A stretch of 32,000 nt of DNA from Candidatus Saccharimonadota bacterium (GTDB taxonomy: Bacteria; Bacillota_I; Bacilli_A; Mycoplasmatales; Hepatoplasmataceae), in contig AP027131.1 in the NCBI GenBank assembly GCA_027925225.1, positions 600,001-632,000 on the forward strand, written 5' to 3'. Below the pieces are notes generated by a model that worked only from the letters and a program-made list of their open reading frames with translations, had not been told where the DNA came from and made no database searches. The first letter of the stretch is position 1. The number at the start of each line of letters is the position of its first letter. Made by a program: the position numbers and the translations under genes. Below are positions 4,612 to 28,245 of the stretch, in pieces.

Positions 4612-6949
4612 TTTTTACATTCCTTTTAAGATTAGAATTATTTAATCATTTCTCAATTTCTAACAAAGTTCCATTTACAAAATGATTATTCTGCACTTCA
4701 AAAGTAATAACATTTTTATATCTATTATAAATTTGAATTTTATCATCTCTCATACTGTAATCAATTTGTTTTTGTTCGCTTTTATTTACTGAAGTTTTAT
4801 TTAAAAAGAATTTTGTATAAGGGTGAATTGGATAATTAAAGATGTAGTTTGCTGTTCCATATTCAACAATGGAACCATATTGAAAAACATAAACTCTATC
4901 TGAAATATATTTTGTTGTTCCAAAATCATTTGTAATAAAAAGAATAGAAATTTTATATTTTTCTTTTATCAATTTTAAAATTTCTATTATTTCAAATTTT
5001 GTAATACTATCCAAAGAAGTAACTGATTCATCAGCAATTATTAACTTAGGATTAGAAACAAGAGCTTTTGCTATTAAAATTTTATGTTTTATTGAATTTG
5101 GAAATTGAAAGGGATAATAATCTAAAATATTTATAGGTAAATTTAAAATTTCAAAAATATCTAAAATTTTTTCTTTAAAAATATTTTCTTTATTTTTTTT
5201 AGAATAAAGATTTTCTATTATTTTTATATCTTCCAGTATTTTTATTCTTTGACTTTCTAAGTCTCTAATTTTTTTTGTTATTTCAAATGAAAATGTTTCC
5301 TCCTTTTCAAAATTTGAAATTCCTCGTTTTTTTATATTATTTACAAGATTTTCTTTTAAAGTATCTAACTTTTCATTAATATTTTTTTCTATTCATTTGT
5401 TTTTAACTAAAACTTTTACTAATTCTTTTTTTTCTTTTTTTAAATTTATAATTCTTGCTTTATCTGCTTTTTTTTGCAATGTATATTCTTTTTTAAAAAA
5501 TTTTCTTTGATTTTTAAATTTTCAACTCATAAGAGAAAGATAAACAGTACAAATTTTATTATTATAAAAATAAATGGTTTTATAGAAACTCTTTAAATTA
5601 TTTAAATTGTGATTATAAATTTCTTCTTTAGAATCTTCTAAAAATTTTAAAAACATTTTTTTAATTTCTCTAAAAAGAACTAACTCATAGTTTAAACTTA
5701 AAATTTCATCTTTTTTTAGCAAAATAAGTTCTTTGTTTGTAATTCTTTTATTTTTAATTTTTAAAAAATCAATATATTTTTCTAAGTTTTCAATTATTTC
5801 ACTTTGCTCTTCTAGACGTTTATTAATTTGATCTGTAAAATGATTCATAAATTTTTTAAAAGGAATTGAATTAATTGGAGATTTTTCAAAAAGTAAATTT
5901 TTAATATAATTTATTCTAACACTATATTTTTCAATAATAGGAAACTTCTCTTTTTCTGATAAAAGATAATTTAAATAAATAATTATTTCTTTTTTATTTT
6001 TTTTTACATCTTCTATTGATTTTATTTTTTCAAGTTCAAAATCAGGTTTTTCAAGAAAAATTTTAAAATCTATATCTTTTTTAAAAAGTTTTTGAAAAGT
6101 TTTTAATAAAAATGTTAATTCAGAAAAAATAAGAGAAAAATTTAATTTTTTTAAAAAATATTCGCTATCTAAATATAATATTGCATATTTTTCATCTTTA
6201 AAAGATAAAGATGCTATTTTTTTATCTTGTTCATAATTCTTTTTAATTTTTCTAATCTCAGTAAATTTTTCTTCTCTTAAAAATTTAATTTTTTCACGAT
6301 ATGTTAATCTATATTTCTTTTTTGATAATTTTGAATTTTTTATATTATTATTTATTTCTTTTAATTTTATTTTTTTTTCATAATAAAGCTGTTTTTGTTC
6401 TGTTTCTTTATAAAGCATATCTTTTTCACTTTTTAAAATACTATCTACTTTATTTATCATTTTATTTGCATTATATTTCTCAGGATATTTATATTTAAAT
6501 AATTTATTTTCAATTTCCTTTTTATTTTGATAAAGAATTTCTAATTCTTTTTCTTCTTCTTTTTCAAGAATTCCAAAGTCTTTAAATGATTTTTTTAAAA
6601 TTGTTTTTATCTTATCATTAGGATTTAAAGATGAAGCTGCATTTTCAAAAATCATTTGTACAGTTTCATAAATTCATCTATTTTTATTATTTATGTTTTT
6701 TATACCATGCGTTGGAATTAATTTTTCATTAATAATAATTTTTCCTTCGTAGAATTTATTGTAGCCTAAAATTGTTTTTGCTAGGGTTGTTTTTCCGGCA
6801 CCAGATTCACCAACTATTCCAACAATTTCATTTTTTTTAATTGTAAAATTTATATTATTTAAAACACTATCAATTTTTTTATATGATTTCATATTTATTG
6901 ATAAATTTTTTATTTCTAAAATTGTTTCGACTTTTTCTTTATTTTCCAT
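4595..6949 (-). CDS. oppF: oligopeptide ABC transporter ATP-binding protein with about 480-aa Lys/Glu-rich insertion
   Basis: All fragments are in one frame, giving 784 aa. Walker A is GESGAGKTT, the Q-loop region is QMIFENAASSLNP and Walker B is KLIIADES. The C-terminus YPIHPYTKFFL is typical of Opp ATPases. The gene reads through the TGA at 4646-4648 to TAG at 4595-4597. Confidence 0.85.
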
Positions 6950-13632: not shown

Positions 13633-15261
13633 TTACATATTCTCTATTATATCTATTCCAAGCAATTTATATATTCTTTGATATAAATTATTAAAAAGAA
13701 TAATTAAGGAAACTCGCTCTTTAGTTAGAGCATCATCCTTACTTATTATCTTATAAGAACTATAATACGAATGAAAAACTGAGGCCATTTCTTTTAAATA
13801 ATTTAATAAAATATTGGGCTCTCTGTTTTTATAAACAGAATCTATAATATAATCAAATTCAAGCATTTTTTTAATTAATAAAAACTCTTTATTTTCTTTT
13901 AAAGAGAATATTAGTTTGAATGATTTTTTAAGAGGTTTTGTTGTATTTTCTAATTTATATTTTTTAAATAAATTAAAAATTCTTGCATTAACATATTGTG
14001 TATATCAATAAGGATTATTTAAATTTTTGTTATTTATCTCATCAATTTCAATTACTAAATTTTGTTCTTTTAATTTAGAAATCATATTAAATCTTAAAAT
14101 ATTTTTTCCTATCATTTCTAATGTTTCATTTATTGTTAATGCATTACCCTTTCTTTTTGACATTTTTACTTCTTCACCATTTTTAGCTATTTTAACCATT
14201 GAAATATAATCAACAATTAATTTTTTACTATCATATCCCAAAATATCCAAAGCGGCTTTTACTCTTTTCTCATATCCGTGGTGATCCATACCTCAAAGAT
14301 TTATCATTAAATCAAATCCTCTATTATATTTTTCAATATGATTAGCAACATCTGCAACCATATATGTAAGTGCATTATTACTTTTTCTTAAAACTCTATC
14401 TTTATCATCTCCAAATAATGAAGTTTGAAGTCAACTTGCTCCATCTTTCTCAAAATAATGTGGTGTTTTTTTAATAATTTCAAAAAATTTATCAACTTTT
14501 TTATCATCAAAAAGTTTTTGCTCTGAAGTAAAAACTTCAAATTTTTTTAATCCTAAATTTTCAAGGGTTTTTTCTATTTCTTTTAAAAAATGTTCTTTTG
14601 CATTTCCTAAAATATAATCATATTTATATTCTTTTGATTCATTAAATAAAATATTTGCATATTCTATAATTTCAGATCCATGATATGCAATAGAATTTAA
14701 ATTTTCTTTTAAAGAAGGATCTACTAATCTTTCATAATAATAAAAAACTGAATTTGCTAAATTTATAATTTGATTTCCAGCATCATTTATATAATATTCT
14801 CTCACAATTTTTTGTTTTAAATATTCAACAGTATTTATATAAATATCTCCAACAACTGCATTTCTTGCATGACCAATATGAAGATTACCAGTAGGATTTG
14901 CTGAAACAAATTCATAATTAATATATTTATCTTTTAAATTTAAATTCGGAACATATTCTTTATTTGCAAATTCAACTAATTTTTTTGTAATAAAACTTTG
15001 ATTTAATTTGAAATTTAAAAATCCTGGATTTGTAATAGAAATTTCTTCAAAATAGTTTTTATAATTTTCTTCTAAAAAAATTTTAATATTTTTTGCTAAT
15101 TTAATCGGAGGAATTAATAAATCGGAACTTAATTTTAAAGCTAAATTTGTAGAATAATTTACATCATTTTTGTCATTTATTTTAAAAATTTCAATTTTTG
15201 GATAATATTTTTCTTTTTCATCAAAATAATTTACTAAAATATCAATAATTTCTTTTTTCAT
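13633..15261 (-). CDS. argS: arginine--tRNA ligase
   Basis: Three fragments in one frame give 542 aa. The HIGH motif (NLHIGHARN) is present and the C-terminal anticodon-binding region ends in ...IIENM. Confidence 0.9.
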
Positions 15262-15262
15262 T

Positions 15263-16432
15263 TTATATACTTACTCCTACTTTTTTGCTAAAATTTTTGT
15301 CATTTGATTTGTTTTTTATAATTGAAGAAACTTCTCTTAATGAATAAATAGAATTATCAATTAAAATTTTTGCTTCATTTTTTTTAGTAGTATAAAGAAA
15401 ATTGATGCTCTTATTTAATGTAATTATGTTTCATGTTTGATTTTTTTGTTCTGGAATAATTTCATTTTTCAAATTATTTATTTCTTCTTCTGTTTCATAT
15501 ACTTTTGGCAATCTTTTTTCTAAAATATTTGTTGATAATTGTTTAATAATATTATCATTTTCTTCTTCTTGAATTTTTCGCAATGCATTTAAAAATAAAA
15601 TATCATCTAATTTTAAAAATTCTTTTACACTTAATTCTTTTTTATATAAAGGAAGCAATAATTCATCATATTTATTATTTAATAAATTATTATCATTTAA
15701 AAATCTTAGTCTATTAAATAATCAAATAAACTGTTCCTGTAAACTAAAACTTTTTAGATTTTTATAAACACTTTTATTCATATGCAATCTTGCTAAAACA
15801 ATACTTTCTACAAGTGAAAGAGCTTTATATTGAAAAACTAACTCATTTTTAAAAATTAAAATATTTTTAAGTAAATAATTTAAATCAATTTTTCCAAAAA
15901 GAGCGCCCGTAAAATATGAATCTCTAAGTAAATAATCAATCCTATCTGCATCTATTTCTGAAGAAATCAATTGATTTATTCATCTTAATGGATGCTTACC
16001 TTTTAAAATTAAAATTGTTTCTTTTAAAACATCAGGATGATATTTTAAAAAAATTTTATTAATCTCTGTTTCATCTGAAGTAATTATTTTTAGTGAATAT
16101 TTTTCATGCTTAATTTGTGAAATATTTTCAAAAGAATGAGAAAATATACCATGACCTAAATCATGTAAAAGAGCCGCAGAAAGAATAGCTCTTTCAGTAT
16201 TTTCATTTATTTCTGCTTTTAAAACATTCAGCATTCTTCTTGCAATTTCATAAACTCCTAATGAATGAAGATATCTTGTAAAAGTTGCAGCAGGAAAAAG
16301 AAAATCTGTAAAACCCAAATGGCTAATTCAATGTAATCTTCTAAATTCTTTTGTTTCCATTAAATTAAAGATTAATTCATCTTCTATTAAAATTTCTCCA
16401 AGTACAGGATCAACAATGTATTTTTTTTTCAC
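15263..16432 (-). CDS. HD-domain phosphohydrolase (dNTP triphosphohydrolase-like)
   Basis: 389 aa. Start is GTG 16432-16430 behind AGGTG. Motifs seen: RYLHSLGV, LLHDLGHGIFSH, DADRIDYLLRDSYFTG. Confidence 0.8.
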
Positions 16433-16449
16433 TTATAAACACCTATTTA

Positions 16450-17889
<1,440 letters not shown>

Positions 17890-17970
17890 TTATTAATATT
17901 TTTAAAAAAGAAAAATACTAACATTAAAAATGTTAAATTAATTATTAAAATTTTTTAGATTTATATTAAT

Positions 17971-18150
17971 TTAATATAAATCTTCATCTTCTAAAAGATA
18001 AATATGACTTGATTCTAAATTATTATCAACTTGCTGTGTAATATTTACTTGACTTTCAGTATTGTCTTCAATTTTAGGTAAATAAATAATTAACATAATA
18101 AAAATTCCAAGTAACAATATAGAAATAATAATTAATAAAATTAATTTCAT
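17971..18150 (-). CDS. 59-aa single-TM peptide with acidic C-terminus (hypothetical)
   Basis: ATG 18150-18148 follows AGGAGAAATTTAG. The sequence is MKLILLIIISILLLGIFIMLIIY...EDEDLY. A hairpin plus T-run lies downstream at about 17917-17935. Confidence 0.45.
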   Translation of the reverse strand: MKLILLIIISILLLGIFIMLIIYLPKIEDNTESQVNITQQVDNNLESSHIYLLEDEDLY

Positions 18151-18216
18151 CTAAATTTCTCCTATTTTCAAAAGTATTATATAATAAGAAATTAATTTTT
18201 ATTAAATTAATTAATT

Positions 18217-18867
18217 TTAAATATTTAGGTTTTTTTTATCAATTAATTCAAAAAAACTATTTAAATTAGTTTTGTATTTATTTACTTTTTTAAATTTAGA
18301 TTTATATTTTTCAATATCAGATATTACAAAAAGATGATAAAGATCAATTGCAAATATTTCTAATTTATTATTCCTTATTGTACATATAACTCTGAGTTCT
18401 TTAGAAGTTTTATTATGTTCATTATTTTCAATATGATGTAATTTTAAATGATAAATTTCCTCAGATATTAAAAATCCTAAATTTAGAGAAAATAAAATTC
18501 TTTTTATTCGCCCATCTTTTTTAATTTTAAAAGGATCCTTTTCTTTTCTATCGTTTGAAAGAGCTAGATTCATAAGATTATTAATATAATCTTTTTTATT
18601 TTGAAAATATTCACAAATATTTTTATAAATAAAATCTAAATATTCATTTTCATCTGGTTTGTGAATTTTGACCATATTTGTAAAAGTGTAATTTTTTAAT
18701 ATATAAGATTTTTTAGCTAAAAGATTAATAAAAATTTCATTAGGATATTCTTCATTTTTTTTGTCAAATTTACTTAAAGATATTTTTCTATTAAGAGATA
18801 AATTTTTCTTAAAATTAACAGAATGAATTGTATTTTGATTTATTTTTTCTAAATCAATTTTATCCAT
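18217..18867 (-). CDS. hypothetical 216-aa protein, downstream partner of the DUF4065-like gene
   Basis: Uninterrupted ATG...TAA ORF starting 9 nt after the upstream stop. The C-terminal segment ELRVICTIRNNKLEIFAIDLYH vaguely recalls the RelE/HigB strand pattern. No firm family. Confidence 0.6.
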   Translation of the reverse strand: MDKIDLEKINQNTIHSVNFKKNLSLNRKISLSKFDKKNEEYPNEIFINLLAKKSYILKNYTFTNMVKIHKPDENEYLDFIYKNICEYFQNKKDYINNLMNLALSNDRKEKDPFKIKKDGRIKRILFSLNLGFLISEEIYHLKLHHIENNEHNKTSKELRVICTIRNNKLEIFAIDLYHLFVISDIEKYKSKFKKVNKYKTNLNSFFELIDKKNLNI

Positions 18868-18876
18868 ATTTAAATA

Positions 18877-19431
18877 TTAATATTCTTCTCTTTTAAAATA
18901 TTCTTCAATTATATTTTCAGATAAAATTTCTTTAGAATTTTTATCTTCTAAATTTCATGCTTCAATTCAAGAATTATCTTTATGGCTTCAATTAACTAAT
19001 GAAAAATCACTAATATCAAAAATATTGTTTAATAAAAAATCATCAATAAAATTTTTTGATTCATTATTTTCATTCATCTTTTTTGAATACAAAGAAAACT
19101 CATCTTTTATATTTTCATTTAATTTATTTTTAGATACTTTCATATATTCTTTATATTCTTCAAATATTTCTTTTTCAACAGGCCCAAATTGTCTTGCTTG
19201 AAATTTTGGATTAGAAAAAAGATAAATATTATCTTTTTTAATAATTTCACCTTCTTCATTTTCATTTTTTATTTCTTGATTTAATTTTTTATTAAAACCA
19301 CCTCAATAAGCAAATAAAAAATAAATTGATTTTTGAAATTTAATTGAAGAAATTTTCTTATTATATTTCTTTTCATAAAGAAGTGTAATATATTTTGCTA
19401 AATCTTTTTTATTATAAATACCTTTTTGCAT
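18877..19431 (-). CDS. DUF4065 / Panacea-domain-like protein (SocA/GepA-type putative antitoxin)
   Basis: 184 aa with 4 TGA=Trp. The pattern IKFQKSIYFLFAYWGG...FQARQFGPVEKEIFEEYKEY matches the remembered DUF4065 core (KLQKLLYF...W..GPV...vY..yk). Confidence 0.6.
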
Positions 19432-19522
19432 ATCAAATATGTAACTCCTTTTTAAAAATATAATTAATTAATCTAATTGTCTCAAATATTTTTTAATATT
19501 TATTAAATAAAATTATATAAAA

Positions 19523-20626
19523 TTAAACATTAAACTTAAAATTACAAATATCACCATCTTTTACAATATAATCTTTTCCTTGAAGGGAAATTAATCCTTT
19601 TTCTTTAAGAATTTTTTCATCGGGTGTTTTTTTAAAATCATTATATGAAATTACTTCGGCTTTAATAAAACCTCTCTCTATATCTGAATGAATTTCTCCA
19701 GCAGCAGCAGGAGCAAAAGTGCCTTTTTTTATTGCTCAAGCTCTAACTTCTTTTGGCCCAGCTGTAAAAAAAGTTTCCATATTTGCAATTTTAAAAATCT
19801 TTTCTGTAATTAAATTTAAACCATTTTCTTTTAAGGAAAATTCATTTAAAAATTCCTTTTTAGAATCTTCATCTAGCTTTGAAATTTCAAATTCAAATTT
19901 TGCTGAAATAATTTCATAATTTAAATTATTTTTTATTAAATAATTACTAATAAAGTCTTTTGTTTCATTATTTAACCCGTTTATTAATTCTTCTTCAGAA
20001 ATATTGATTACATAAAAAAATGGTTTTAAAGTAAGAAAATTAAAACCTTTTAATATTTTTTCTTCTTGTTCGGTAAAAAAATGTTCAAAAAGAAAAACTT
20101 CTCTTTCTAAAAGAGATTTAACTTTTCTCATTAAAGCCACCAATTCTTGATCTTCTTTATTATTAGGAGAAGAAGAAGATTTTTTTTTATTTCTATTTAA
20201 TCAATTTTCAGTTTGTTCTAAATCAGAAAAAATTAATTCTAAATTTATTATTTTTAAATCTCTTAAGGGATTTAGATTTTTTTCAACATGAATTATTTTT
20301 TCATCAGAAAAACCCCTTATTAAATGAATAATTGCATCCACTTCTTTTATATTATTTAAAAATTTATTTCCTAGTCCTTCGCCTTTATGTGCATTTTTTA
20401 CAAGTCCTGCAATATCAAAAAATTGAATTTTATTATATTTTTTTATTTTACTTTTATAAGTATCGGCGAGAAAATCAACCCTCTTATCTTTTATTTCTAT
20501 AATAGAAATATTAGGATCTATTGTTGCAAAAGGATAATTTTCAGCTTCTACACTTGAATTTGTAATTGCATTAAAAAGAGTGGATTTTCCAACATTTGGT
20601 AAACCGATTATCCCAATTTTTATCAT
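19523..20626 (-). CDS. ychF: redox-regulated ribosome-binding ATPase YchF
   Basis: 367 aa. The G1 motif GIIGLPNVGKSTLFNAIT is present, and the C-terminal TGS-like region ends in DGDICNFKFNV. RBS is GAAGGAGAA. Confidence 0.9.
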
Positions 20627-20639
20627 AATAATTCTCCTT

Positions 20640-21470
20640 CTAATCTAATTCTAAAATTTCCTTTAATTTCTCTAAAACAAAACTATTATCCAATTTTACT
20701 ATTAGTTTATCTTTATTTAATTCTATATTTTGTTTTAACAAATTACTATAAAATGTTTTTCTTATTAATTTTTTATTATCTTTTTTTACTAAATTTTCAA
20801 CATCTCTTGTATTTAAATTTTTGCTTAAAATTTCTTTAAAAATATTTAATTGTTTTTCTTTTTCAAAATTAATAAGCATTTTAACTTTTCCAAAAGAAAT
20901 CTTATTTATAACTAAAGCTTCTAATATTTTTTCATCTAATTTACTTACTCTTAAAATATTACTAACATATGAACGAGATTTATTTATTTTTTTTGCAAGT
21001 TCCTCATGTGTTCAATTGTTTTTTTCTAATATATTTTTATATGCTAGACTTTCTTCTATTTTATTCAAACCTTCTCTTGAAGTATTTTCAATTAGAGCAA
21101 ATTCAGCAGATTTAGAATCTGTTACATTTTTTATAATAGAAGGTATTGATTTTATATTTAATAATTTAAAGGCGCGGAGTCTTCTTTCTCCTGCTATTAA
21201 AAAATATTGATTACTATTATTTTCATCTTCCTTTAAAAGTATTGGAAAAAGTAATCCATTTTCTTTTATAGAAAAAGCTAATTCTTTTAATTTTTTTTCA
21301 TTAAATTGTTTTCTGGGCTGATTAGGATTTTCTTTGATTTTTACTAAATCAACTGAAACCACTTCACCTAAAATATTATTTTGTTCTACATCATTTATTA
21401 AATTCTCTAAATTTTTATTAAAAATATTATTTAACCCTTTTTTATAATTATTTTTATTAAAATTACTCAC
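20640..21470 (-). CDS. parB: chromosome partitioning protein ParB/Spo0J
   Basis: 276 aa. Start is GTG 21470-21468, overlapping the parA end. Motifs seen: ENPNQPRKQF, IAGERRLRA, and the HTH WTHEELAKKINKSRSYVSN. Confidence 0.85.
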
Positions 21471-22242
21471 TGTAACCTCTTTTTAATTGTAAAAATTCCT
21501 CTATAAAACTTTCATAAGCTTTTGCACCTTTGCAATTTTTATCATAATCAAAAATACTTTGACCAGAAGAAGGAGATTCAGCTAATTTTATATTTATTGG
21601 GATTCTTGTTTTTAGAATTTTATCTTTAAAAAATATATTTAATTCTTTTTCTATTTCTTTAGAAAAATTAATTCTTTTATTAAATTTTGTAAGCAATATT
21701 CCATCAATATAAAGTTTTCTATTATATCTTTTTTTTACAATAGAAATTGTTTCTAAAAGTTGACTTAACCCTTCAAGCGAAAAATAATCTGCTTGCATTG
21801 GAATAATAAGTGAATTTGAAATTGAAAGTGCATTTTTACTCATAAGTCCAAGTGCAGGAGGACAATCAAAAATAATATAATCATATTCTTTTTTTATTTT
21901 TTCTATAAAAGGAAAAAAAATTAGTTCTTCTGTACGATTATCTCTTACAAGTTGTACTTCAACACCTGCAAGACCCATAGAAGAAGGGACCACATCAACA
22001 TTTTTTGTTGTTGTTTTTAAAATTAGTTTTTTTGGATCAAGATTTTTACTAATAATTAAGTCATAAACATCATAATTTGGATAATCATTATCTATACCAA
22101 TTCCTCTTGTCAAATTTGCTTGAGAATCTATATCTATTAATAAAACCTTTTTATTTTTAATTCCAAGACCAGCAGCCATATTTAAAGCTGTTGTAGTTTT
22201 ACCAATTCCTCCTTTTTGATTTATTATGCTTACAATTTTCAT
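21463..22242 (-). CDS. parA: chromosome partitioning ATPase ParA/Soj
   Basis: Deviant Walker A NQKGGIGKTT is present. ATG 22242-22240 is preferred over the track's TTG at 22260, because a TATAAT sits just upstream. Confidence 0.9.
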   Translation of the reverse strand: MKIVSIINQKGGIGKTTTALNMAAGLGIKNKKVLLIDIDSQANLTRGIGIDNDYPNYDVYDLIISKNLDPKKLILKTTTKNVDVVPSSMGLAGVEVQLVRDNRTEELIFFPFIEKIKKEYDYIIFDCPPALGLMSKNALSISNSLIIPMQADYFSLEGLSQLLETISIVKKRYNRKLYIDGILLTKFNKRINFSKEIEKELNIFFKDKILKTRIPINIKLAESPSSGQSIFDYDKNCKGAKAYESFIEEFLQLKRGYSE

Positions 22243-22286
22243 ATTAATAAAATTATACAAAGTTAATAATCTTTAAATTAAAAAAT

Positions 22287-22312
22287 AAAACCAAAATAAA
22301 AATTTTGGTTTT
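22287..22312 (-). terminator. rho-independent terminator closing the small-protein array
   Basis: Perfect 11-bp stem aaaaccaaaat/attttggtttt with a 4-nt loop, T-rich 3' side on the minus strand. It lies between array gene 1 and the parA promoter. Confidence 0.6.
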
Positions 22313-22340
22313 ATTATATGTAATATATTTATTAAAATCA

Positions 22341-22583
22341 TTAATTTTTTATAAAATACAATATTTTTTTTAAAAATTTACATATTGATTTATATAAATT
22401 TCAAATTGAAGCTATATAAAAACCTAAATCAAAAAAAATTCATGTTAAAAATAAAATTTTTAAAAGTTTTATTTCAAAATCAGTATGTTCTCAATGATCA
22501 ATTTGATTTTTTGTTAAAATTGTAAGATATATAAAAAATGTACCTAATCCTAAAAAAATAAAAAATAAAATAAAGTTTTTCAT
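22341..22583 (-). CDS. array paralog 1: 80-aa two-TM protein (divergent C-terminus)
   Basis: Sequence MKNFILFFIFLGLGTFFIYLTILTKNQIDHWEHTDFEIKLLKILFLTWIFFDLGFYIASIWNLYKSICKFLKKILYFIKN. RBS is AAAGGA. Confidence 0.65.
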
Positions 22584-22630
22584 ATTATTAAAATCCTTTC
22601 TATTTAATTTTAAAAATTCAAATAATAAAA

Positions 22631-22659
22631 AATACTTAAAATTGTTAATTTTAAGTATT
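22631..22659 (-). terminator. inter-unit hairpin terminator (downstream of paralog 2)
   Basis: 13-bp arms aatacttaaaatt / aattttaagtatt with a 3-nt loop, followed on the minus strand by TTTTTATTATTT. Confidence 0.6.
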
Positions 22660-22678
22660 TATAAAATTTAAAATATAT

Positions 22679-22927
22679 TTATTTATTTTCTTCTTTTTTA
22701 AAAATTAATTTTATAAATTTATATAAATTTCAAAATGAAGCCATAACAAATCCAAGATCTAAAATGCAAATTGATGTGAATAATACTTTTAAGATTTTAA
22801 AATCAAAATTTGGATCATTGTGCTCATTCGAAGAAAAAGAGTTAATTTCATTTTTTATATTTGCTGCAAAATATCCAAAAAGCATTCCTAATCCTAAAAA
22901 AATTAAAAATCATATAAATGTTTTCAT
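22679..22927 (-). CDS. array paralog 2: 82-aa two-TM protein
   Basis: Sequence MKTFIWFLIFLGLGMLFGYFAANIKNEINSFSSNEHNDPNFDFKILKVLFTSICILDLGFVMASFWNLYKFIKLIFKKEENK. The frame was verified. Confidence 0.7.
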
Positions 22928-22974
22928 ATTATTAAAATCCTTTCTATTTAATTTTAAAAATTAAAATAATAAAA

Positions 22975-23003
22975 AATACTTAAAATTAATAATTTTAAGT
23001 ATT
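22975..23003 (-). terminator. inter-unit hairpin terminator (downstream of paralog 3)
   Basis: Same 13-bp arms with loop aat and a T-run on the minus strand. Confidence 0.6.
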
Positions 23004-23022
23004 TATAAAATTTAAAATATAT

Positions 23023-23286
23023 TTATTTATTTTCTTCTTTTTTAAAAATTAATTTTATACATATATATAAATTTCAAAATGAAGCTGTTAAAAATCCAAA
23101 ATCAAAAAAAATTGATGCAGAAAATAATATTTTATAAAGTTTAAGATCAAAATAAGAATCATCATGATTATAGTGATTATAATCCTCTATTTTTTCCTTA
23201 AAATCAACTGTAAAATATATAAAAATCATTCCTAAACCTAAAAAAATAAGAAATCAAATTAAATTTTTTATATTAAATTTTTTCAT
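23023..23286 (-). CDS. array paralog 3: 87-aa two-TM protein
   Basis: Sequence MKKFNIKNLIWFLIFLGLGMIFIYFTVDFKEKIEDYNHYNHDDSYFDLKLYKILFSASIFFDFGFLTASFWNLYICIKLIFKKEENK. RBS is AAGGAGAA. Confidence 0.75.
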
Positions 23287-23333
23287 ATTTATTTATTCTC
23301 CTTATTTTAATTTTTAAAATTAAAATAATAAAA

Positions 23334-23362
23334 AATACTTAAAATTATTAATTTTAAATATT
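23334..23362 (-). terminator. inter-unit hairpin terminator (downstream of paralog 4), one mismatch
   Basis: Same arms, but the right arm reads aattttaaatatt (g to a), giving one mismatch. Confidence 0.5.
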
Positions 23363-23381
23363 TATAAAATTTAAAATATAT

Positions 23382-23645
23382 TTACTTATTTTCTTCTTTT
23401 TTAAAAATTAATTTTATACATATATATAAATTTCAAAATGAAGCTGTTAAAAATCCAAAATCAAAAAAAATTGATGCAGAAAATAATATTTTATAAAGTT
23501 TAAGATCAATATAAGAATCATTATGATTGTGATAATTATAATGATCAATTTCATATTTTGTATTTACTGTAAAATATATAAAAATCATTCCTAAACCTAA
23601 AAAAATAAAAAATCAAATAAAATTTTTTATACTAAACTTTTTCAT
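23382..23645 (-). CDS. array paralog 4: 87-aa two-TM protein
   Basis: Sequence MKKFSIKNFIWFFIFLGLGMIFIYFTVNTKYEIDHYNYHNHNDSYIDLKLYKILFSASIFFDFGFLTASFWNLYICIKLIFKKEENK. Confidence 0.75.
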
Positions 23646-23692
23646 ATTTATTATTACCTTTCGTTTTAATTTTAAAAATTAAAATAATAAAA

Positions 23693-23721
23693 AATACTTA
23701 AAATTGTTAATTTTAAGTATT
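23693..23721 (-). terminator. inter-unit hairpin terminator (downstream of paralog 5)
   Basis: Perfect 13-bp arms with loop gtt. Confidence 0.6.
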
Positions 23722-23740
23722 TATAAAATTTAAAATATAT

Positions 23741-23995
23741 TTACTTATTTTCTTCTTTTTTAAGAATTGATTTTATACAGATGTATAAATTTCAAAATGA
23801 AGCAATAAAAAAACCAAAATCTAAGAAAAGAAAAGAAGAAAATAAAACTCTTAACAATACATAGTCTTTATGTTCAAAATCAGGATAATTAGTATTAATT
23901 TCTTCCATTGTTTTTCCTAAAAAATATGCAAAAAGAATTCCCAATCCAAAAAAAATAAAAAATCAAATTAAGTTTTTTATATTAAAATTTTTCAT
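23741..23995 (-). CDS. array paralog 5: 84-aa two-TM protein
   Basis: Sequence MKNFNIKNLIWFFIFFGLGILFAYFLGKTMEEINTNYPDFEHKDYVLLRVLFSSFLFLDFGFFIASFWNLYICIKSILKKEENK. Confidence 0.75.
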
Positions 23996-24041
23996 ATTTA
24001 TTTATTCTCCTTATTTTAATTTTAAAATTAAGAAAATAAAA

Positions 24042-24070
24042 AATACTTAAAATTGTTAATCTTAAGTATT
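24042..24070 (-). terminator. inter-unit hairpin terminator (downstream of paralog 6), one mismatch
   Basis: The right arm reads aatcttaagtatt (t to c), giving one mismatch. Confidence 0.5.
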
Positions 24071-24089
24071 TATAAAAATTAAAATATAT

Positions 24090-24347
24090 TTATTTATTTT
24101 CTTCTTTTTTAAGAATTGATTTTATACAGATGTATAAATTTCAAAATGAAGCAATAAAAAAACCAAAATCAAAAAATATTATTGATGTAAATAATATTTT
24201 TAAAAAAACTATTTCTAAATTAGTTAATTCAAATCCAATAGGACGGTTAATTTTATACATAATATTACTTGCAATATAAATAAAAAGGAATGATAATCCT
24301 AAAAAAATTAAAAATCAAATAAAATTTTTTATATTAAATTTTTTCAT
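24090..24347 (-). CDS. array paralog 6: 85-aa two-TM protein
   Basis: Sequence MKKFNIKNFIWFLIFLGLSFLFIYIASNIMYKINRPIGFELTNLEIVFLKILFTSIIFFDFGFFIASFWNLYICIKSILKKEENK. Confidence 0.75.
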
Positions 24348-24404
24348 ATTTACTTATTCTCCTTATTTTAATTTTAAAAATTAAAATAATAAAAAATACT
24401 TAAA

Positions 24405-24433
24405 ATTGATAATTTTAAGTATTTATAAAAATT
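24405..24433 (-). terminator. inter-unit hairpin terminator (downstream of paralog 7)
   Basis: Perfect 13-bp arms with loop gat. Confidence 0.6.
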
Positions 24434-24442
24434 AAAATATAT

Positions 24443-24690
24443 TTATTTATTTTCTTCTCTTTTAAAAATTAATTTTACAAATTTATATAAATTTCAAAAT
24501 GAAGCTGTAAAAAAGCCAAGATCTAAAAGAATCCATGCTGAAAATAAAATTTTATAAAGCTTAATTTCAAAATCAGAATGAGTACCATGATTAATTTCGT
24601 TTTTTGTATTTACTGTAAAATATATAAAAATCATTCCTAAACCTAAAAAAATTAAAAATCAAATAAATTTTTTTATATTAAAGTTTTTCA
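24443..24690 (-). pseudogene. array paralog 7, frameshifted at an A5 tract (or phase-OFF copy)
   Basis: The span is 248 nt, not a multiple of 3. The N-terminus MKNFNIKKFIWFLIFLGLGMIFIYFTVNTK is in frame with the ATG. The family C-terminus EINHGTHSDFEIKLYKILFSAWILLDLGFFTASFWNLYKFVKLIFKREENK lies in another frame. Read as given, the ORF stops at TAG 24525-24523. Confidence 0.7.
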
Positions 24691-24782
24691 TATTTATCAC
24701 TACCTTTCTATTTAATTTTAGAAATTAAAATAAAATTTTTAAAAAAAATAAATAAGTTTTGATAATAAGATTTATATTTAGG

Positions 24783-24887: not shown

Positions 24888-26846
24888 ATGAAAATTTTTT
24901 TATTCAAAAATACAAAAATTAATAAAAATAGAACTATTCTTAATTTTATGGGAAACGAAAACTTAAATTCTTATTTAAAAAAAAATAATAAAAACTTTAA
25001 TTCAAATAATGATAAAAATTTCTTAGAAATTTCTGGCGAGGAAATAAAAAATGATTTTTTTAAAGAAAAATTTCAAATTTTAGATTTAGACAAAGATTTC
25101 TTAAACTATGATTTTGCAATTGTAAAGTCTTTTCCATATTCAAATGGAAAAGACTTTTATTTTTTTATAAAAAATATAAAAATAGTAAGTTCTAGTCAAA
25201 TTGAATTGTCTTTTGAATTTGACTTTATTTCAACTTGAAATATTTGAGAAATAATATTAATTAATGAAAAAATAGCTATTAAACAAGGACATTTAAAACA
25301 AGGAATTAATTTTGAATTAAATAAAAAAAAATTAGCAAAAAATGCTTTCTTTAGAAAAAAACAATTATTAAGTAAAAACCATAATTTAAAAACAATTTAT
25401 ATTCCAGAATCATTAATAAATAACAATGAAAAAAAAATGAAGGAAATTTTTAAATTTGATAAATGATTAATTTGTTTTATGGATTCTAATTTTGGAATGG
25501 GTGTAGATTTTAAAAATGTAATAAAAATAAGTGATCCAAATTCAAATGGAACTTTTGAATATAAATATAATATAATTGCTTTACCTTTCTCTGAAAATAA
25601 TGAAATTATGTTTAGAGGAAAATATACATCAAAAGAAAACATTATTACAGTTTCAAAAGATACAAAAATAAATGCATTTGAAATTTATAAAAATTTACAA
25701 GAAAATAAAACTTTTATTTATGGTTATTTAATAGATAGACTGCCCTTAAATAATATAAACTTTATTTCCGATGAAACAGGAAATTATATTACTGGAATTG
25801 ATATTTATGAAGTAAAAACTGATCCAAATAAGGATAATGGTGATGATAGTGATCAATATAATATTATTGTTCCAATAATTAAAGAAATTAGCTCAAATGT
25901 AAAAATAAATTATAAATCTTCACAAAAATTATTTAATTGAGAAGAAGCAGATAATAATTTTAAAAATGATAATGATTGAAAAAATATTATCTGAAAAAAA
26001 GAACAAGAAGCAATTTTAAATTTTGCTCCTTTTAAAAAATATGAAATAGGTATTTATACAGAAAATACAAACTCAGGATTTAAATTTGATTTAAACGATT
26101 TAATAAATTTAAATGTTCATGAAAATGATTATCTTAATATATTTGTAACTTTTGAACCGTATATTTTTGATACTGCTTTTGAATTAAAAGAAAGAGAAAA
26201 TACAGAAAATAATACTGATTATTATTATGGAGAAAGAATTTTTAAATTAAAACGTTCTATTGTAATTCCATATGAAAATTCAAAATGAATTGAAAATATG
26301 AAAAATAAAGAATTATCGGGATCTCAAAATTTTTTAACACCTGGGAAAAAAGCAGTTGGTTCTGTATTGTCTTCTCTAATTCCTGAAACTAAATTTTTAG
26401 ATTGAATGATACCTGGAGCAAAAATAGGAGCAAAATTATTTAAATCTATATTTGGGAAAGAAGACGAAAAAAGCGAAGAACCTGATTCAACCGCAAATAC
26501 AGGAACAGATTTAAATGTTGAAATATTAAGCAGTTATGATTTTAAAACTTTAAAAATAACAAAATATTTAGAAAGTGATGAAAATAAATTAGCATTTCAT
26601 ATTCATAAATATGGATATAACTTATTTGATGAACATTATTATCTGTCAGAAATACTTTTAGCAAGAACTAGATTTAATTTTATACAACTATCTGATTTTG
26701 AAACTGAAGAAATATTTAGTAATATACCTAATATTTATAAAAGTGAATATTTAGAAAGATTAAAATCTGGAATAACATTTTGAAATTTTATACAAGATGA
26801 ATTTGCTGATGTTTATGGAATAAATAAATTTATATTTAAATACTAA
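24888..26846 (+). CDS. phage tail knob / distal tail-tube protein, phi29 gp9-like
   Basis: RBS is AAAGGAGAAAA. The three track ORFs share one frame and are joined by 9 TGA=Trp, with the gaps checked, giving 652 aa. The N-domain YSNGKDFYFFIKNIKIVSSSQIELSFEFDFISTWNIW compares with remembered gp9 [35 protein letters not shown]. The C-terminus HKYGYNLF...RTRFNFIQ...SGITFWN compares with gp9 HKYGYKIN...RKAFNYVQ...NGITLWH. Confidence 0.7.
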
Positions 26847-26877
26847 TAATTAAAAAACATTAAAAGAGGTGAAAAAT

Positions 26878-27543
26878 ATGGCAATAAAAAATCCAGATGC
26901 AAAACAATTATCTTTAATTCAAATTTTAACTGATTATTTAATTACAATAGATGCAACTTTAGAAGGTGGAATAAATCAAGAAATAATAAATGAAAATAAT
27001 TTTACATCATTAAATCAAATAAAAACACTTGTTGAAACAGATACATATAATATATCAGCAAATGAAGCAAGTATTGGTACACTATCTAATCTTAATACTA
27101 CTGCAAATGCTGATTTAGTTCAATCTATAAACGAATTAAAAGATGCAATTAATATGATAAATGGTAAAGGAACTAGTTCTTATCCAGTTGGAACAATAGT
27201 AATAGCTCCAACTGCTCCTCAAATAGGAGGCTGAGAAAATTTAGGAGAAGTTTTAGAAGGACAAGCAATAATAGGCGGAACTTCAACCTATGGTTCAGTA
27301 ATGTCTCATACACACAATGTTGAATATAATGGTTCAGCAGATGATTATGAACATAAATATTGAGATATATGTGATAATATGAGTTCAGGAAATTATAGTA
27401 GAGGAAGCTCAAACAATAGTGGTAATTTATATGTTGATATAGCAAATAGATTACAAATTATTTCAACAGGAGGAAAAGAAAATATTCCATATGGAATAGG
27501 AATGGGATTAGGGCTTTATGTTTGAAAAAAAAATTCAAAATAA
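26878..27543 (+). CDS. tail-fibre / receptor-binding-like protein with tail-collar-type C-domain, paralog 1
   Basis: AGAGGTG lies 6 nt before ATG 26878. 221 aa with 3 TGA=Trp. Motifs seen: the fibre motif NADLVQSINELKDAI, the collar-like YPVGTIVIAPTAPQIGGWENLG and the H-x-H motif MSHTHNVEYNGSA. Confidence 0.65.
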
Positions 27544-27576
27544 TTTTATTTAAAATTAAAAAATAAAGGAGGAAAT

Positions 27577-28245
27577 ATGAATACAAAAAAAGGTAATTTA
27601 GATCAAGTAATTTTTGCTTCAATTTTAACAAATCAAGTTATACCAACAGATGCAGCTAGAGAAGGTGGAGAAAATCAAGAAATAATAAATGATAATAACT
27701 TTACATTGATAAACCAAGCAAATGAAAATATTAATAAAAACATATCAAATATTTCTATAAATACAAATAACATAGGTAATTTATCTAGTCTTAAAACTAA
27801 TATGAAATCAAATTTAGTAGATGCAATTAACGAGCTAAAAGATGAAATTGATTTAATAACAGGAGGAAATGGAACTACTCCTTATCCAATAGGAACAATA
27901 GTAATAGCTCCAACTGCTCCCGAAATAGGAAATTGAGAAGATTTAGGAGAAATCTTAGAAGGCCAAGCAATAATAGGTGGATCTTCATCTGATGGTTCAA
28001 TAATAGCACATACACATAATATTGAATATAATGGTTCAGCAGAGGGAATTAGTAACAAATTTTGAGATGAATCTGCAGATGATATGAGTGGAAATTATAG
28101 CAGAGGAGCTTCAGATAATGGTGATGGTAATTTTTATGCAGATATAGCAAGCAAATTAAAAATTACAACTACAGGAAATGATAAAAATAGAGCTTATGGA
28201 ATTGGACTAGGATTAGGGCTTCATCTTTGAAAAAGAATTAGTTAA
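27577..28245 (+). CDS. tail-fibre / receptor-binding-like protein, paralog 2
   Basis: RBS is AAAGGAGGAAAT. 222 aa, roughly 60% identical by eye to paralog 1. Motifs seen: SNLVDAINELKDEI, YPIGTIVIAPTAPEIGNWEDLG, AHTHNIEYNGSA. Confidence 0.65.

Follow-up and report, generated by a model that had tools for sequence, protein, structure and literature searches.

Two adjacent minus-strand genes of the isopod-gut mollicute Candidatus Hepatoplasma vulgare, here called A and B, probably constitute a bicistronic, antitoxin-first toxin–antitoxin (TA) or defence module of the PanAT type, in which a Panacea-domain protein (A) is encoded ahead of a member of a sizeable uncharacterised family (B) that is found only directly downstream of one Panacea subfamily. 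The genes lie in the 32,000-nt stretch of DNA analysed as a whole (the window), which comes from a MAG with a 662-kb genome. Open reading frames (ORFs) were called with translation table 4, because the genome reads TGA as Trp; the calls made with table 11 were broken at TGA and were rejected. Under table 4, gene A (HPAVJP_5530, BDV02664.1; positions 18877–19431, minus strand) encodes 184 residues and gene B (HPAVJP_5520, BDV02663.1; 18217–18867, minus strand) encodes 216 residues (B216), exactly the two linked ORFs with a 9-nt gap described in the initial annotation. The spacer (TATTTAAAT; 18868–18876, minus strand) separates the TAA stop codon of A (18877–18879) from the ATG start codon of B (18865–18867). 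The sole Shine–Dalgarno (SD)-like element for B is a degenerate AGAGAAG located within the 3′ end of A, suggesting coupled translation; the earlier statement that the second gene has no separate ribosome-binding site (RBS) is roughly right, except that this degenerate element does exist. In clostridial and phage homologs, A and B overlap by 19–29 nt, and the GAGGA RBS and ATG of B are embedded in the conserved C-terminus of A ('...KEEIINEY').

Gene A is preceded by an SD sequence read directly from the DNA (AAGGAG; 19445–19450, minus strand), 13 nt before its ATG, and by a promoter-like TTGAGA-17-TATATT (19457–19485, minus strand), which is a consensus match only; such matches are no commoner in the sequence than in shuffles (15 found versus 21 expected), so that it counts as a candidate and not as evidence. 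The promoter/terminator scan showed no enrichment over shuffles and no terminator, and only low-complexity AT palindromes were found upstream of A when operator-like inverted repeats were sought. TAA and TAG account for 6.6% of the codons over six frames in the 8-kb stretch 15001–23000, giving probabilities of about 4e-7 and about 4e-6 for chance open frames of 216 and 184 codons, respectively; A and B are therefore not chance ORFs. The pair is flanked upstream by ychF (19523–20626) and downstream by gltX (16450–17862), the latter beyond an adjacent 59-aa transmembrane ORF (17971–18150, minus strand) with its own AGGAG SD. This small ORF matches its equivalent on a sister Hepatoplasma contig at 78% identity, close to the values of the core flanks (77–86%), has no counterpart next to the pair in the other loci examined, and probably stands outside the module. 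The supposed phage-tail genes begin at 24888, 5.4 kb away from the pair and not 3 kb as first given, and are weakly phage-like, with a single weak PHROG hit; this 'phage-tail island' was set aside as a sign of a local prophage, and no prophage around the pair was detectable in the 662-kb genome.

The product of gene A matches Pfam PF13274 (SocA_Panacea/DUF4065) with 26.2 bits (E 1.6e-5), narrowly above the gathering cut-off of 25.7 bits, and the matched Panacea core (residues 74–155) is encoded at 18967–19212 (minus strand). The PF13274 tag precomputed for this protein in the protein database agrees with the score, and homologs bearing the same tag are 34–44% identical to A. In addition, phrog_1281 covers residues 2–182 (E 7.7e-15), practically the full length, and the NCBIfam SocA model NF047745 aligns weakly to residues 76–181 (33.3 bits, E 3.7e-8), far under the equivalog cut-off of 190 bits, and A is therefore not classed as a SocA equivalog. 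Judged from these profile matches, which bear out the original assignment of the upstream protein to DUF4065, A is a stand-alone Panacea protein with no N-terminal domain. All four Trp codons of the gene are TGA, and the conserved Trp residues are kept; gene B contains no TGA codon. A second Panacea paralog, HPAVJP_0040, is encoded elsewhere by Hepatoplasma vulgare.

The product of gene B is basic (pI 9.5) and predicted to be soluble, with no transmembrane segment found. It gave zero matches in Pfam, NCBIfam, PADLOC, and PHROGs, and a profile search through the whole set of PDB sequences returned nothing with an E of 10 or less; the remark that the partner has no named family thus holds across all of these collections. 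A word-indexed search with B216 returned only B216 itself, and exhaustive phmmer against 1.84 billion representatives added one non-self relative (P0005), so that the pair is not part of a universal Mollicute core. The wider family was reached only via the neighbours of A homologs, and comprises at least 100 protein clusters, mostly of about 180–240 aa and spanning 169–290 aa by profile search, all without a name and without a Pfam domain, except for one member carrying PF00563. The Asp, Tyr, and His of a D-x-Y-H signature at the end of a β-hairpin are invariant in 71 aligned members (D175-L-Y-H-L179 in B216; codons at 18331–18345, minus strand), and a second motif, F62-T63-N64 (18676–18684, minus strand), is at least 92% conserved across the family. 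Conserved positions are S54, T63, N64, R120, K122, R123, R159, D175, Y177, and H178; among these and their neighbours, B216 and P0005 both retain S54, the Phe and Asn of FTN, R120, K122, R159, and DLYHL, the position of T63 being Ser in P0005.

The link between the Hepatoplasma proteins and the large clostridial family rests on profile comparisons. With no sequences shared between the two sides, hhalign related the Hepatoplasma pair to the clostridial family with a probability of 88% (E 3e-6) over 113 columns that cover the FTN, RIKRI, and DLYHL motifs. A leave-one-out HMM ranked B216 first among the 442 window ORFs with 11 bits (E 0.005), which, taken alone, indicates a weak link. The Hepatoplasma-type B alignment retrieved nothing from metagenome or viral sequences, and tblastn of B216 and its homolog P0009 against 50,697 phage records gave no match; the phage homologs of B were found via A and via a fold search. 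Nothing recurrent appeared for B216 and its homologs in Pfam, NCBIfam, PADLOC, or PHROGs. A Glyco_hydro_31 match (13 bits) was dismissed as chance, and so was a REase_II match in PADLOC (14 bits, E 0.0046) of gp25 from phage BL3; apart from the latter, no model of PADLOC-DB v2 matched A184, B216, or their homologs.

A and B evolve as a unit. In the neighbourhoods of B homologs, as the initial annotation had proposed to survey, a Panacea gene of the same subfamily is located directly upstream of the B-family gene on the same strand, usually overlapping it, at 49/49 loci (27/27 loci plus 22/22 IMG/VR viral contigs), drawn from Hepatoplasma, Clostridia and Bacilli MAGs, IMG/VR contigs, and the phages BL3 and bIL312. 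At the homologous loci, the two genes overlap by 19–40 nt or are separated by small gaps. The two proteins also co-diverge, with a Mantel r of 0.92 that was reached by 0 of 5000 permutations. The A proteins are neutral to acidic (pI 4.4–6.9), and the B proteins are basic (pI 9.1–9.9) in five of the seven pairs measured, the two B proteins from cultured phages being not basic (BL3 gp25, pI 5.8; bIL312 Orf25, pI 7.1). The typical gene order is tail/DUF859, holin, endolysin, A–B, and HTH repressor or integrase, which places the pair in the accessory ('moron') slot of temperate phages, with the lysis genes on one side and the integrase/repressor on the other; the B family is carried mainly by temperate phages of low-GC (gut) Firmicutes, and the flanking genes vary with the context (repressor, integrase, rpmG/efp, or gltX). 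In phage phiAT3, a related A is present alone. That B was never seen without A at the 49 loci, with a related A standing alone in phiAT3, is the asymmetry expected if B is harmful on its own. Altogether, the invariable pairing, the co-divergence, the mostly complementary charge, and the phage accessory-slot home lend strength to the TA or defence interpretation advanced at the outset.

Members of the B family occur in two cultured phages. In the temperate Brochothrix phage BL3, the genes are ordered gp19 (tail fibre), gp22 (holin), gp23 (amidase), gp24 (PanA), gp25 (B family), and later gp29 (integrase); the Panacea gene gp24 (ADH03105.1) overlaps the 208-aa gp25 (ADH03106.1) by 29 nt, and both are unannotated. 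BL3 gp25 aligns with the B family at an hhalign probability of 90% and carries INFTNL and VDIYHLFIPS, although it is only 18% identical to B216 and acidic. The surroundings differ, with a Fic-like gene and the integrase next to the BL3 pair and housekeeping genes around the Hepatoplasma pair. In BFVD, the family model has a single significant fold match, the 208-aa phage protein D7RWK8 (E 1.3e-5, TM 0.52), which is taken to be BL3 gp25 from its length. In Lactococcus prophage bIL312, the partner is Orf25, of 188 aa, whose gene is overlapped by that of the Panacea protein (−35 nt), and this Orf24/Orf25 pair (NP_076824.1/NP_076825.1) exemplifies T16, a predicted PanAT cluster (Kurata et al. 2022, PMC8832971). 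Dataset S1 of that study lists 12 T16 pairs, mostly from Bacilli and all marked 'notest', and for a T16 representative HHpred turned up nothing ('50S ribosomal subunit, 51.5%') (PMC8832971). Orf25 shares with the B family the genomic context and the FTN (as QFTNFL), (I)D-x-x-H-L-x-IP (as IDPLHL), and C-terminal CIS motifs, but has Leu in place of the Tyr of D-L-Y-H. The family profile aligns with Orf25 over 49 C-terminal columns (hhalign probability 60%, E 8.4e-5) and scores 13.6 bits as an HMM, and B216 does not match phrog_28810, the PHROG that contains Orf25; the B family thus appears to be a remote relative of T16. In the NetFlax supplement text searched, the bIL312, Brochothrix, and T16 accessions have no entry.

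The Hepatoplasma pair shares with known PanAT systems a two-gene, antitoxin-first arrangement with a very short spacer, a frequent location on prophages among its homologs, a stand-alone Panacea protein, and a partner that is a 'hypothetical protein' without a domain hit. PanAT loci most commonly place the antitoxin gene first, and ten of the pairs are validated (Kurata et al. 2022, PMC8832971). In that study, a partner was to lie within 100 nt of the Panacea gene, and here the spacer is 9 nt; no conserved operon was to extend beyond three genes, and here the flanks differ among contexts. PanA-linked pairs have already been predicted in Mycoplasma, Spiroplasma, and phytoplasma, the Mycoplasma/Spiroplasma partners forming cluster T1, and 41 of the 88 predicted PanT clusters have no domain hit (Kurata et al. 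2022, PMC8832971). Validated PanTs are toxSAS, Fic/Doc, MazF-like, or nucleotide-cyclase-like proteins or membrane peptides; B differs from these in being a soluble protein of about 200 aa that matches no solved structure. By analogy with other stand-alone Panacea proteins, which form stable complexes with their toxins and neutralise them directly (Ernits et al. 2023, PMC10440598; PMC8832971), A would neutralise B through direct protein–protein binding, and B would act as a growth-inhibiting cytoplasmic effector once neutralisation is relieved, either on degradation of A, for example by Lon, or on sensing of a trigger by A, for example phage infection. The lack of a hydrophobic segment in B, together with the conserved S54, T63, N64, R120, K122, R123, R159, D175, Y177, and H178, would make a membrane toxin less likely than an enzyme whose substrate bears a phosphate (RNA, a nucleotide, or the translation apparatus); any such activity is conjectural, since B matches no toxin family or fold.

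The fold of B bears directly on an earlier suggestion, made from the C-terminal stretch ELRVICTIRNNKLEIFAIDLYH, that B loosely recalls RelE/HigB toxins, in which case it would belong to the RelE/HigB/ParE superfamily, act as an mRNA interferase or poison gyrase, and be much extended at the N-terminus. This identity appears improbable. Like such toxins, B216 is basic, follows an antitoxin gene, and has a short β-hairpin ending in a conserved His, which recalls the C-terminus of YoeB/RelE-type toxins. A Foldseek list obtained against the PDB with a low-confidence model of B216 (pLDDT 62.7) was crowded with HigB, RelE, YoeB, ParE, YafQ, and MqsR chains, all of them at E of at least 0.37 and TM of at most 0.31, and MqsR-like toxins are the most common recognisable partners of PanA (PMC8832971). 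However, the enrichment was not accepted, because the confident model of homolog P0009 (pLDDT 85, pTM 0.84) fails to reproduce it: no PDB match is significant (best E 0.57), and the best ParE match has an E of 2.8, a TM of 0.16/0.31, and an rmsd of 14 Å. The RelE/ParE fold was taken as a compact domain of ~90–110 aa with two N-terminal helices on an antiparallel sheet. B is about twice the size of a RelE-type toxin and predicted to form one compact unit, and the P0009 model has a different strand–helix order, with helices between strands where RelE has a plain meander. Neither B216 nor 70 family members gave a RelE, ParE, HigB, YoeB, Gp49, or MqsR match in Pfam at E up to 10, and the PDB sequence profile search was equally empty; these comparisons do not support the proposed resemblance.

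The same genomic context that favours a PanAT-type module would also suit a non-toxic phage accessory pair, in which A and B serve a lysogeny-related function (superinfection exclusion by blocking DNA entry, regulation, or anti-defence) with no self-poisoning, and the Hepatoplasma copy is a leftover of a long-lost prophage. Prophages carry diverse cargo in their accessory slot, and B is unlike any known toxin. Moreover, roughly half of all DUF4065 proteins are encoded outside TA-like loci, and of 25 predicted PanTs, 8 showed no toxicity in E. coli (PMC8832971). This explanation is nevertheless rather unlikely: B is never without A while a related A can stand alone, the architecture points to translational coupling, the proteins co-diverge and mostly have complementary charges, and a genome of 662 kb has kept the pair with no prophage detectable nearby. 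Decay bears on another explanation, that the ORFs have no function and are leftovers of an ancient mobile element that Hepatoplasma has yet to lose. The pair is syntenic upstream of gltX in the sister Hepatoplasma contig L002, where both ORFs are intact but have diverged much faster (A 59% and B 48% identical) than the flanking genes (77–86%); the degenerate RBS of B would also fit erosion, as would the genome paper in noting neither a toxin nor a TA system. That paper stated that the genome encodes no toxins and gave restriction-modification and CRISPR-Cas9 as the only defences. Against it, both frames have stayed open in two diverged species despite the stop-codon frequency given above, B216 and P0005 keep the family-wide conserved residues save for the Ser at T63, and A keeps its conserved Trp residues recoded as TGA, so that we regard functionless decay as quite improbable. 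The synteny, a GC3 that matches the neighbouring genes, and the TGA Trp codons further indicate an old resident, contrary to the 'insertion-like' character first ascribed to the pair. As for mechanism, A might instead be a proteolytic adaptor that feeds B to ClpXP, as in SocAB, the type VI TA system of Caulobacter, rather than a binding inhibitor. SocA is the founding Panacea protein (PMC8832971), SocAB likewise has an antitoxin with a Panacea domain, and A does align weakly to the SocA model, but its 33 bits fall far below the cut-off of 190, and B, having no NCBIfam match, is not SocB-like. Mollicutes generally lack ClpXP. Of the conserved peptidases, the Hepatoplasmataceae genome paper lists Prp, FtsH, and Lon and makes no mention of ClpP or ClpX, and the stand-alone PanAs validated so far hold their toxins in stable complexes, neutralising them directly; an adaptor mechanism of this kind is highly improbable in the Hepatoplasma lineage.

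Returning to the PanAT-type module, the Hepatoplasma pair may represent an old domesticated or selfish remnant that was already present before the two Hepatoplasma species diverged; protection against phage, or the cost of losing a TA pair, would explain its retention. A more specific proposal, which we regard as possible and put forward tentatively, is that the B family constitutes a new cytoplasmic toxic effector with a fold absent from the PDB and a conserved S/T-N...R-x-K-R...R...D-x-Y-H site, deployed by temperate phages of low-GC Firmicutes as a module always locked to one Panacea subfamily for abortive infection or superinfection defence, and playing the same role in Hepatoplasma. The novelty is limited in that the PanAT concept, its prophage association, and the remote relative T16 have already been published as predictions. 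What is added is that an orphan Mollicute protein is now connected with a family of partner proteins, at least 100 clusters in size and tied to one Panacea subfamily, that is common on prophages of Firmicutes from human and animal guts and for which BL3 and bIL312 provide tractable cultured phages. If the module reading is true, one of the smallest free-standing bacterial genomes keeps such a pair alongside CRISPR-Cas9 and restriction-modification, and the retained PanAT-like pair, together with the paralog HPAVJP_0040, would extend the small set of accessory functions that outlast genome reduction in a gut symbiont.

The two genes lie on the minus strand as open frames of 184 aa (HPAVJP_5530, hereafter gene A; 18877–19431) and 216 aa (HPAVJP_5520, gene B; 18217–18867), separated by a 9-nt spacer, with ychF upstream and, on the downstream side, a transmembrane ORF of 59 aa followed by gltX, in the 662,108-bp MAG of Candidatus Hepatoplasma vulgare, a mollicute from the isopod hepatopancreas. 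The G+C content of the window is 21%; TGA interrupts its genes under translation table 11, and the frames, including those of A and B, close under table 4. Because TAA and TAG make up 6.6% of the codons (six frames of the 8-kb stretch 15001–23000), an open frame would arise by chance with P ~4e-6 for 184 codons and ~4e-7 for 216 codons, and neither ORF is considered fortuitous. Gene A has a canonical AAGGAG Shine–Dalgarno sequence, and the sole such element of gene B is a degenerate AGAGAAG within the 3′ end of A, in agreement with the tightly linked pair between ychF and gltX described in the initial annotation.

The DUF4065 domain, given the name 'Panacea' by Kurata et al. 2022 (PMC8832971), had been recognized by eye in the product of gene A (A184), and this assignment is upheld by the Pfam SocA_Panacea model, narrowly (26.2 bits; gathering cut-off, 25.7), and by a full-length match to phrog_1281 (E, 7.7e-15); the match to the NCBIfam SocA model is weak (33 bits; equivalog cut-off, 190). 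Lacking an extra N-terminal domain, A184 is a stand-alone Panacea protein; proteins of this type neutralize toxins directly, and a sensor role has been proposed for the domain (Ernits et al. 2023; PMC10440598). Panacea antitoxin–toxin (PanAT) pairs were predicted at 1,268 loci with 88 partner clusters (41/88 without a domain match), the usual order being antitoxin-first, and ten pairs were validated; the predictions in Mollicutes (cluster T1) include the Mycoplasma mycoides group, Spiroplasma citri, and a phytoplasma with 25 DUF4065 genes (Kurata et al. 2022; PMC8832971). Outside the window, the H. vulgare genome encodes a paralog, the Panacea protein HPAVJP_0040 (BDV02115.1; 183 aa), which shares 59% identity with A184 and 50% with A of the sister Hepatoplasma contig.

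Gene B was initially assigned to no family, and its product (B216) indeed has no match in Pfam, NCBIfam, PADLOC, or PHROGs; when 1.84 billion representatives were searched exhaustively, the only relative besides B216 itself was P0005, 47% identical. The wider B family was reached through homologs of A. One of these (P0004; 40% identical), on a 23%-GC contig, adjoins a 217-aa protein that has '...IEIYLLDLYHLF' in common with B216, and seven A homologs in MAGs of gut Clostridia and Bacilli are each followed directly by a 196–212-aa ORF with the same motif (7/7). A profile of ten B-family proteins retrieved 100 clusters (169–290 aa), none of them named and only one, P0092, having a Pfam domain (PF00563). 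D175, Y177, and H178 (B216 numbering) are invariant across 71 aligned members, F62-T63-N64, S54, R120, K122, R123, and R159 are conserved in the family and all present in B216, and B has no hydrophobic segment. An HMM lacking B216 scores it at 11.3 bits (E, 0.005) and ranks it first among 442 six-frame ORFs of the window, and the hhalign alignment of the two Hepatoplasma B proteins with 70 other members (probability, 88%; E, 3e-6) covers 113 columns that span all family motifs. Based on these independent profile tests, the identical genomic position, and the size, B216 is very probably homologous to the wider clostridial/phage B family.

Throughout the neighborhoods surveyed, a Panacea gene of A's own subfamily precedes the B-family gene on the same strand, in 27/27 loci (about 19 non-redundant) and in 22/22 IMG/VR viral contigs. 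The two genes usually overlap by 19–29 nt, and in the clostridial loci the GAGGA ribosome-binding site and ATG of B are embedded in the codons of the conserved C-terminus of A ('...KEEIINEY'), an arrangement for coupled translation. The pairwise distances of A and B in 18 loci are correlated with r = 0.92 (0/5000 Mantel permutations as high); within this A/B clade, partners have not been swapped. Outside Hepatoplasma, B diverges faster than A (14–23% vs 28–44% identity to the window proteins). For seven pairs, the pI of A lies in the neutral to acidic range (4.4–6.9), and that of B is basic in five (9.1–9.9; B216, 9.5), the exceptions being BL3 gp25 (5.8) and bIL312 Orf25 (7.1). A solitary B-family gene was never seen among the loci examined; a Panacea gene can be solitary, as is the related ORF19 of Lactobacillus phage phiAT3 (2956–3864, with the region downstream) at the lysin–integrase junction, with no B-like ORF within the following 400 nt. 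In three Arenicellales/Gammaproteobacteria MAGs (L010–L012; about 6470–6910), more distant A homologs (22–27% identity) have after them the gene of a 116-aa transmembrane-segment protein unrelated to B (3/3; directly in L010 and L012), which exemplifies a change of Panacea partners towards small membrane toxins.

On long contigs, the pair is preceded by tail (DUF859), holin, and endolysin genes and followed by an HTH repressor or integrase gene. Temperate siphoviruses have their accessory-gene ('moron') slot at this position. Some genomes have the pair in the chromosome, flanked by NUDIX and rpmG/efp. Two cultured elements carry the pair, Brochothrix phage BL3 and, as a remote relative, Lactococcus prophage bIL312. 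In BL3, the Panacea protein gp24 and the 208-aa gp25, whose genes overlap by 29 nt, directly follow holin gp22 and amidase gp23, and gp25 aligns with the B-family profile at an hhalign probability of 90%. In bIL312 (Orf24/Orf25), Orf25 aligns over 49 C-terminal columns with a probability of 60% and shares the FTN, D-x-x-H-L-x-IP, and CIS motifs with the family. The gene directly after gp24/gp25, BL3 gp26 (5121–6248; 375 aa), has a HPFLDGNGRMGR motif, which we take by eye to be a Fic/Doc signature; gp26 would then add another toxin-like gene to the cargo of this slot. The bIL312 proteins (NP_076824.1/NP_076825.1) are given in Dataset S1 of Kurata et al. 2022 as PanA and predicted toxin cluster pT17/T16, and the 12 pairs given for T16, which come mostly from Bacilli, had uninformative HHpred results (PMC8832971); our literature search found no later publication characterizing this partner family.

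The pair has been retained in Hepatoplasma. The 23.6-kb contig that encodes P0005, from a related Hepatoplasma, matches the window in gene order (A fragment, B, 60-aa ORF, gltX, HD, argS, lgt, trxB, whiA), and identities to the window are 77–86% for the flanking proteins, 59% for A, and 48% for B. Because the pair is syntenic in the sister species, its GC3 (0.06–0.07) equals that of its neighbors, and all four Trp codons of gene A are TGA, it appears to be an old resident, contrary to the insertion-like character first ascribed to it. The 59-aa ORF between B and gltX (17971–18150, minus strand), with its own AGGAG Shine–Dalgarno sequence, encodes a single transmembrane helix at the N-terminus and a tail of acidic character; being 78% identical to its counterpart in the sister contig (1472–1654), it evolves like the core flanks, unlike A and B. 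The closest A/B pair outside Hepatoplasma (Logan SRR26949868; 1991 bp; 23% GC; A, 40% identical) uses TGG for Trp and has the same translation under tables 4 and 11.

Elsewhere in the window, parA (21463–22242, minus strand) is intact, and parB looks split (20640–21470, minus strand) into a ParB-like N-terminal 152-aa ORF with a GTG start (21012–21470) and, 132 nt apart, a 79-aa ORF with a weak HTH_ParB match (20640–20879; E, 0.0016). Next to parA, seven tandem paralogous ORFs of 80–87 aa (22341–24691, minus strand), repeated about every 350 nt and each starting with a transmembrane segment (MKKFNIKNxIWFLIFLGLGM...), constitute an expanded small-membrane-protein family. On the plus strand (24888–28245), a 652-aa ORF with no Pfam or PHROG match is followed by two paralogous ORFs of 221/222 aa with long identical stretches, one of which weakly matches phrog_4757, a family of unknown function (E, 8.6e-5), and, more weakly, a tail-fiber family (E, 0.0078). 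The 'phage-tail island' of the initial annotation is only weakly supported, and it starts 5.4 kb from gene A rather than 3 kb.

With the family alignment, AlphaFold2 gave a pLDDT of 62.7 for B216, and 85.2 (pTM, 0.84) with the clostridial member P0009 as the target, which was modeled as a single compact mixed α/β unit. In Foldseek searches, the P0009 model had nothing significant in the PDB (best E, 0.57) and a single significant match in BFVD, D7RWK8, a phage protein of 208 aa (E, 1.3e-5; TM, 0.52), presumed from its length to be BL3 gp25. A RelE/HigB-like strand pattern had been suspected in B, and the Foldseek list of the weaker B216 model is crowded with HigB, RelE, YoeB, ParE, and MqsR chains, all with E of at least 0.37, TM of at most 0.31, and rmsd mostly >10 Å. 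This crowding was not reproduced with P0009, RelE-type Pfam models gave no match, even weak, in 70 B-family members, and a PDB sequence profile search returned 0 matches. The suspected likeness is therefore not borne out, and a RelE-like toxin, as one form of toxin mechanism, is improbable.

The best-supported reading, which we hold to be rather probable, is that A and B constitute a PanAT-type module. The data show which domain A has, that B belongs to its family, and that the pair is strictly linked, co-diverges, occupies the prophage cargo slot, and has been retained; its toxicity, direct neutralization, target, and biological role are inferred. A would bind B and neutralize its putative toxicity, B being a soluble effector, basic in most members, and the conserved polar and basic residues suggest that B may be an enzyme whose substrate is RNA, nucleotides, or a component of the translation machinery. 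The phage-borne module would most likely serve lysogen defense or prophage stabilization, and the Hepatoplasma pair may be kept for defense, or because toxin–antitoxin pairs resist deletion; the defenses reported for Hepatoplasmataceae are restriction-modification and CRISPR-Cas9 only, with no toxins encoded (PMC10928387). The pair might instead be a non-toxic accessory of phages, which we consider unlikely, or a decaying remnant, of which there is little likelihood. An adaptor system for ClpXP resembling SocAB is highly improbable; the conserved peptidases of the Hepatoplasmataceae include Prp, FtsH, and Lon, with ClpP unmentioned (PMC10928387).

The A/B pair is genuine and provides a sound lead, the PanAT kind being already described. 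What is new is the placement of an orphan Hepatoplasma protein in a large family that is strictly coupled to Panacea, is mostly prophage-borne, bears a D-x-Y-H signature, and lacks a structural relative among solved proteins, and the identification of two cultured-phage representatives, which makes the B family testable.
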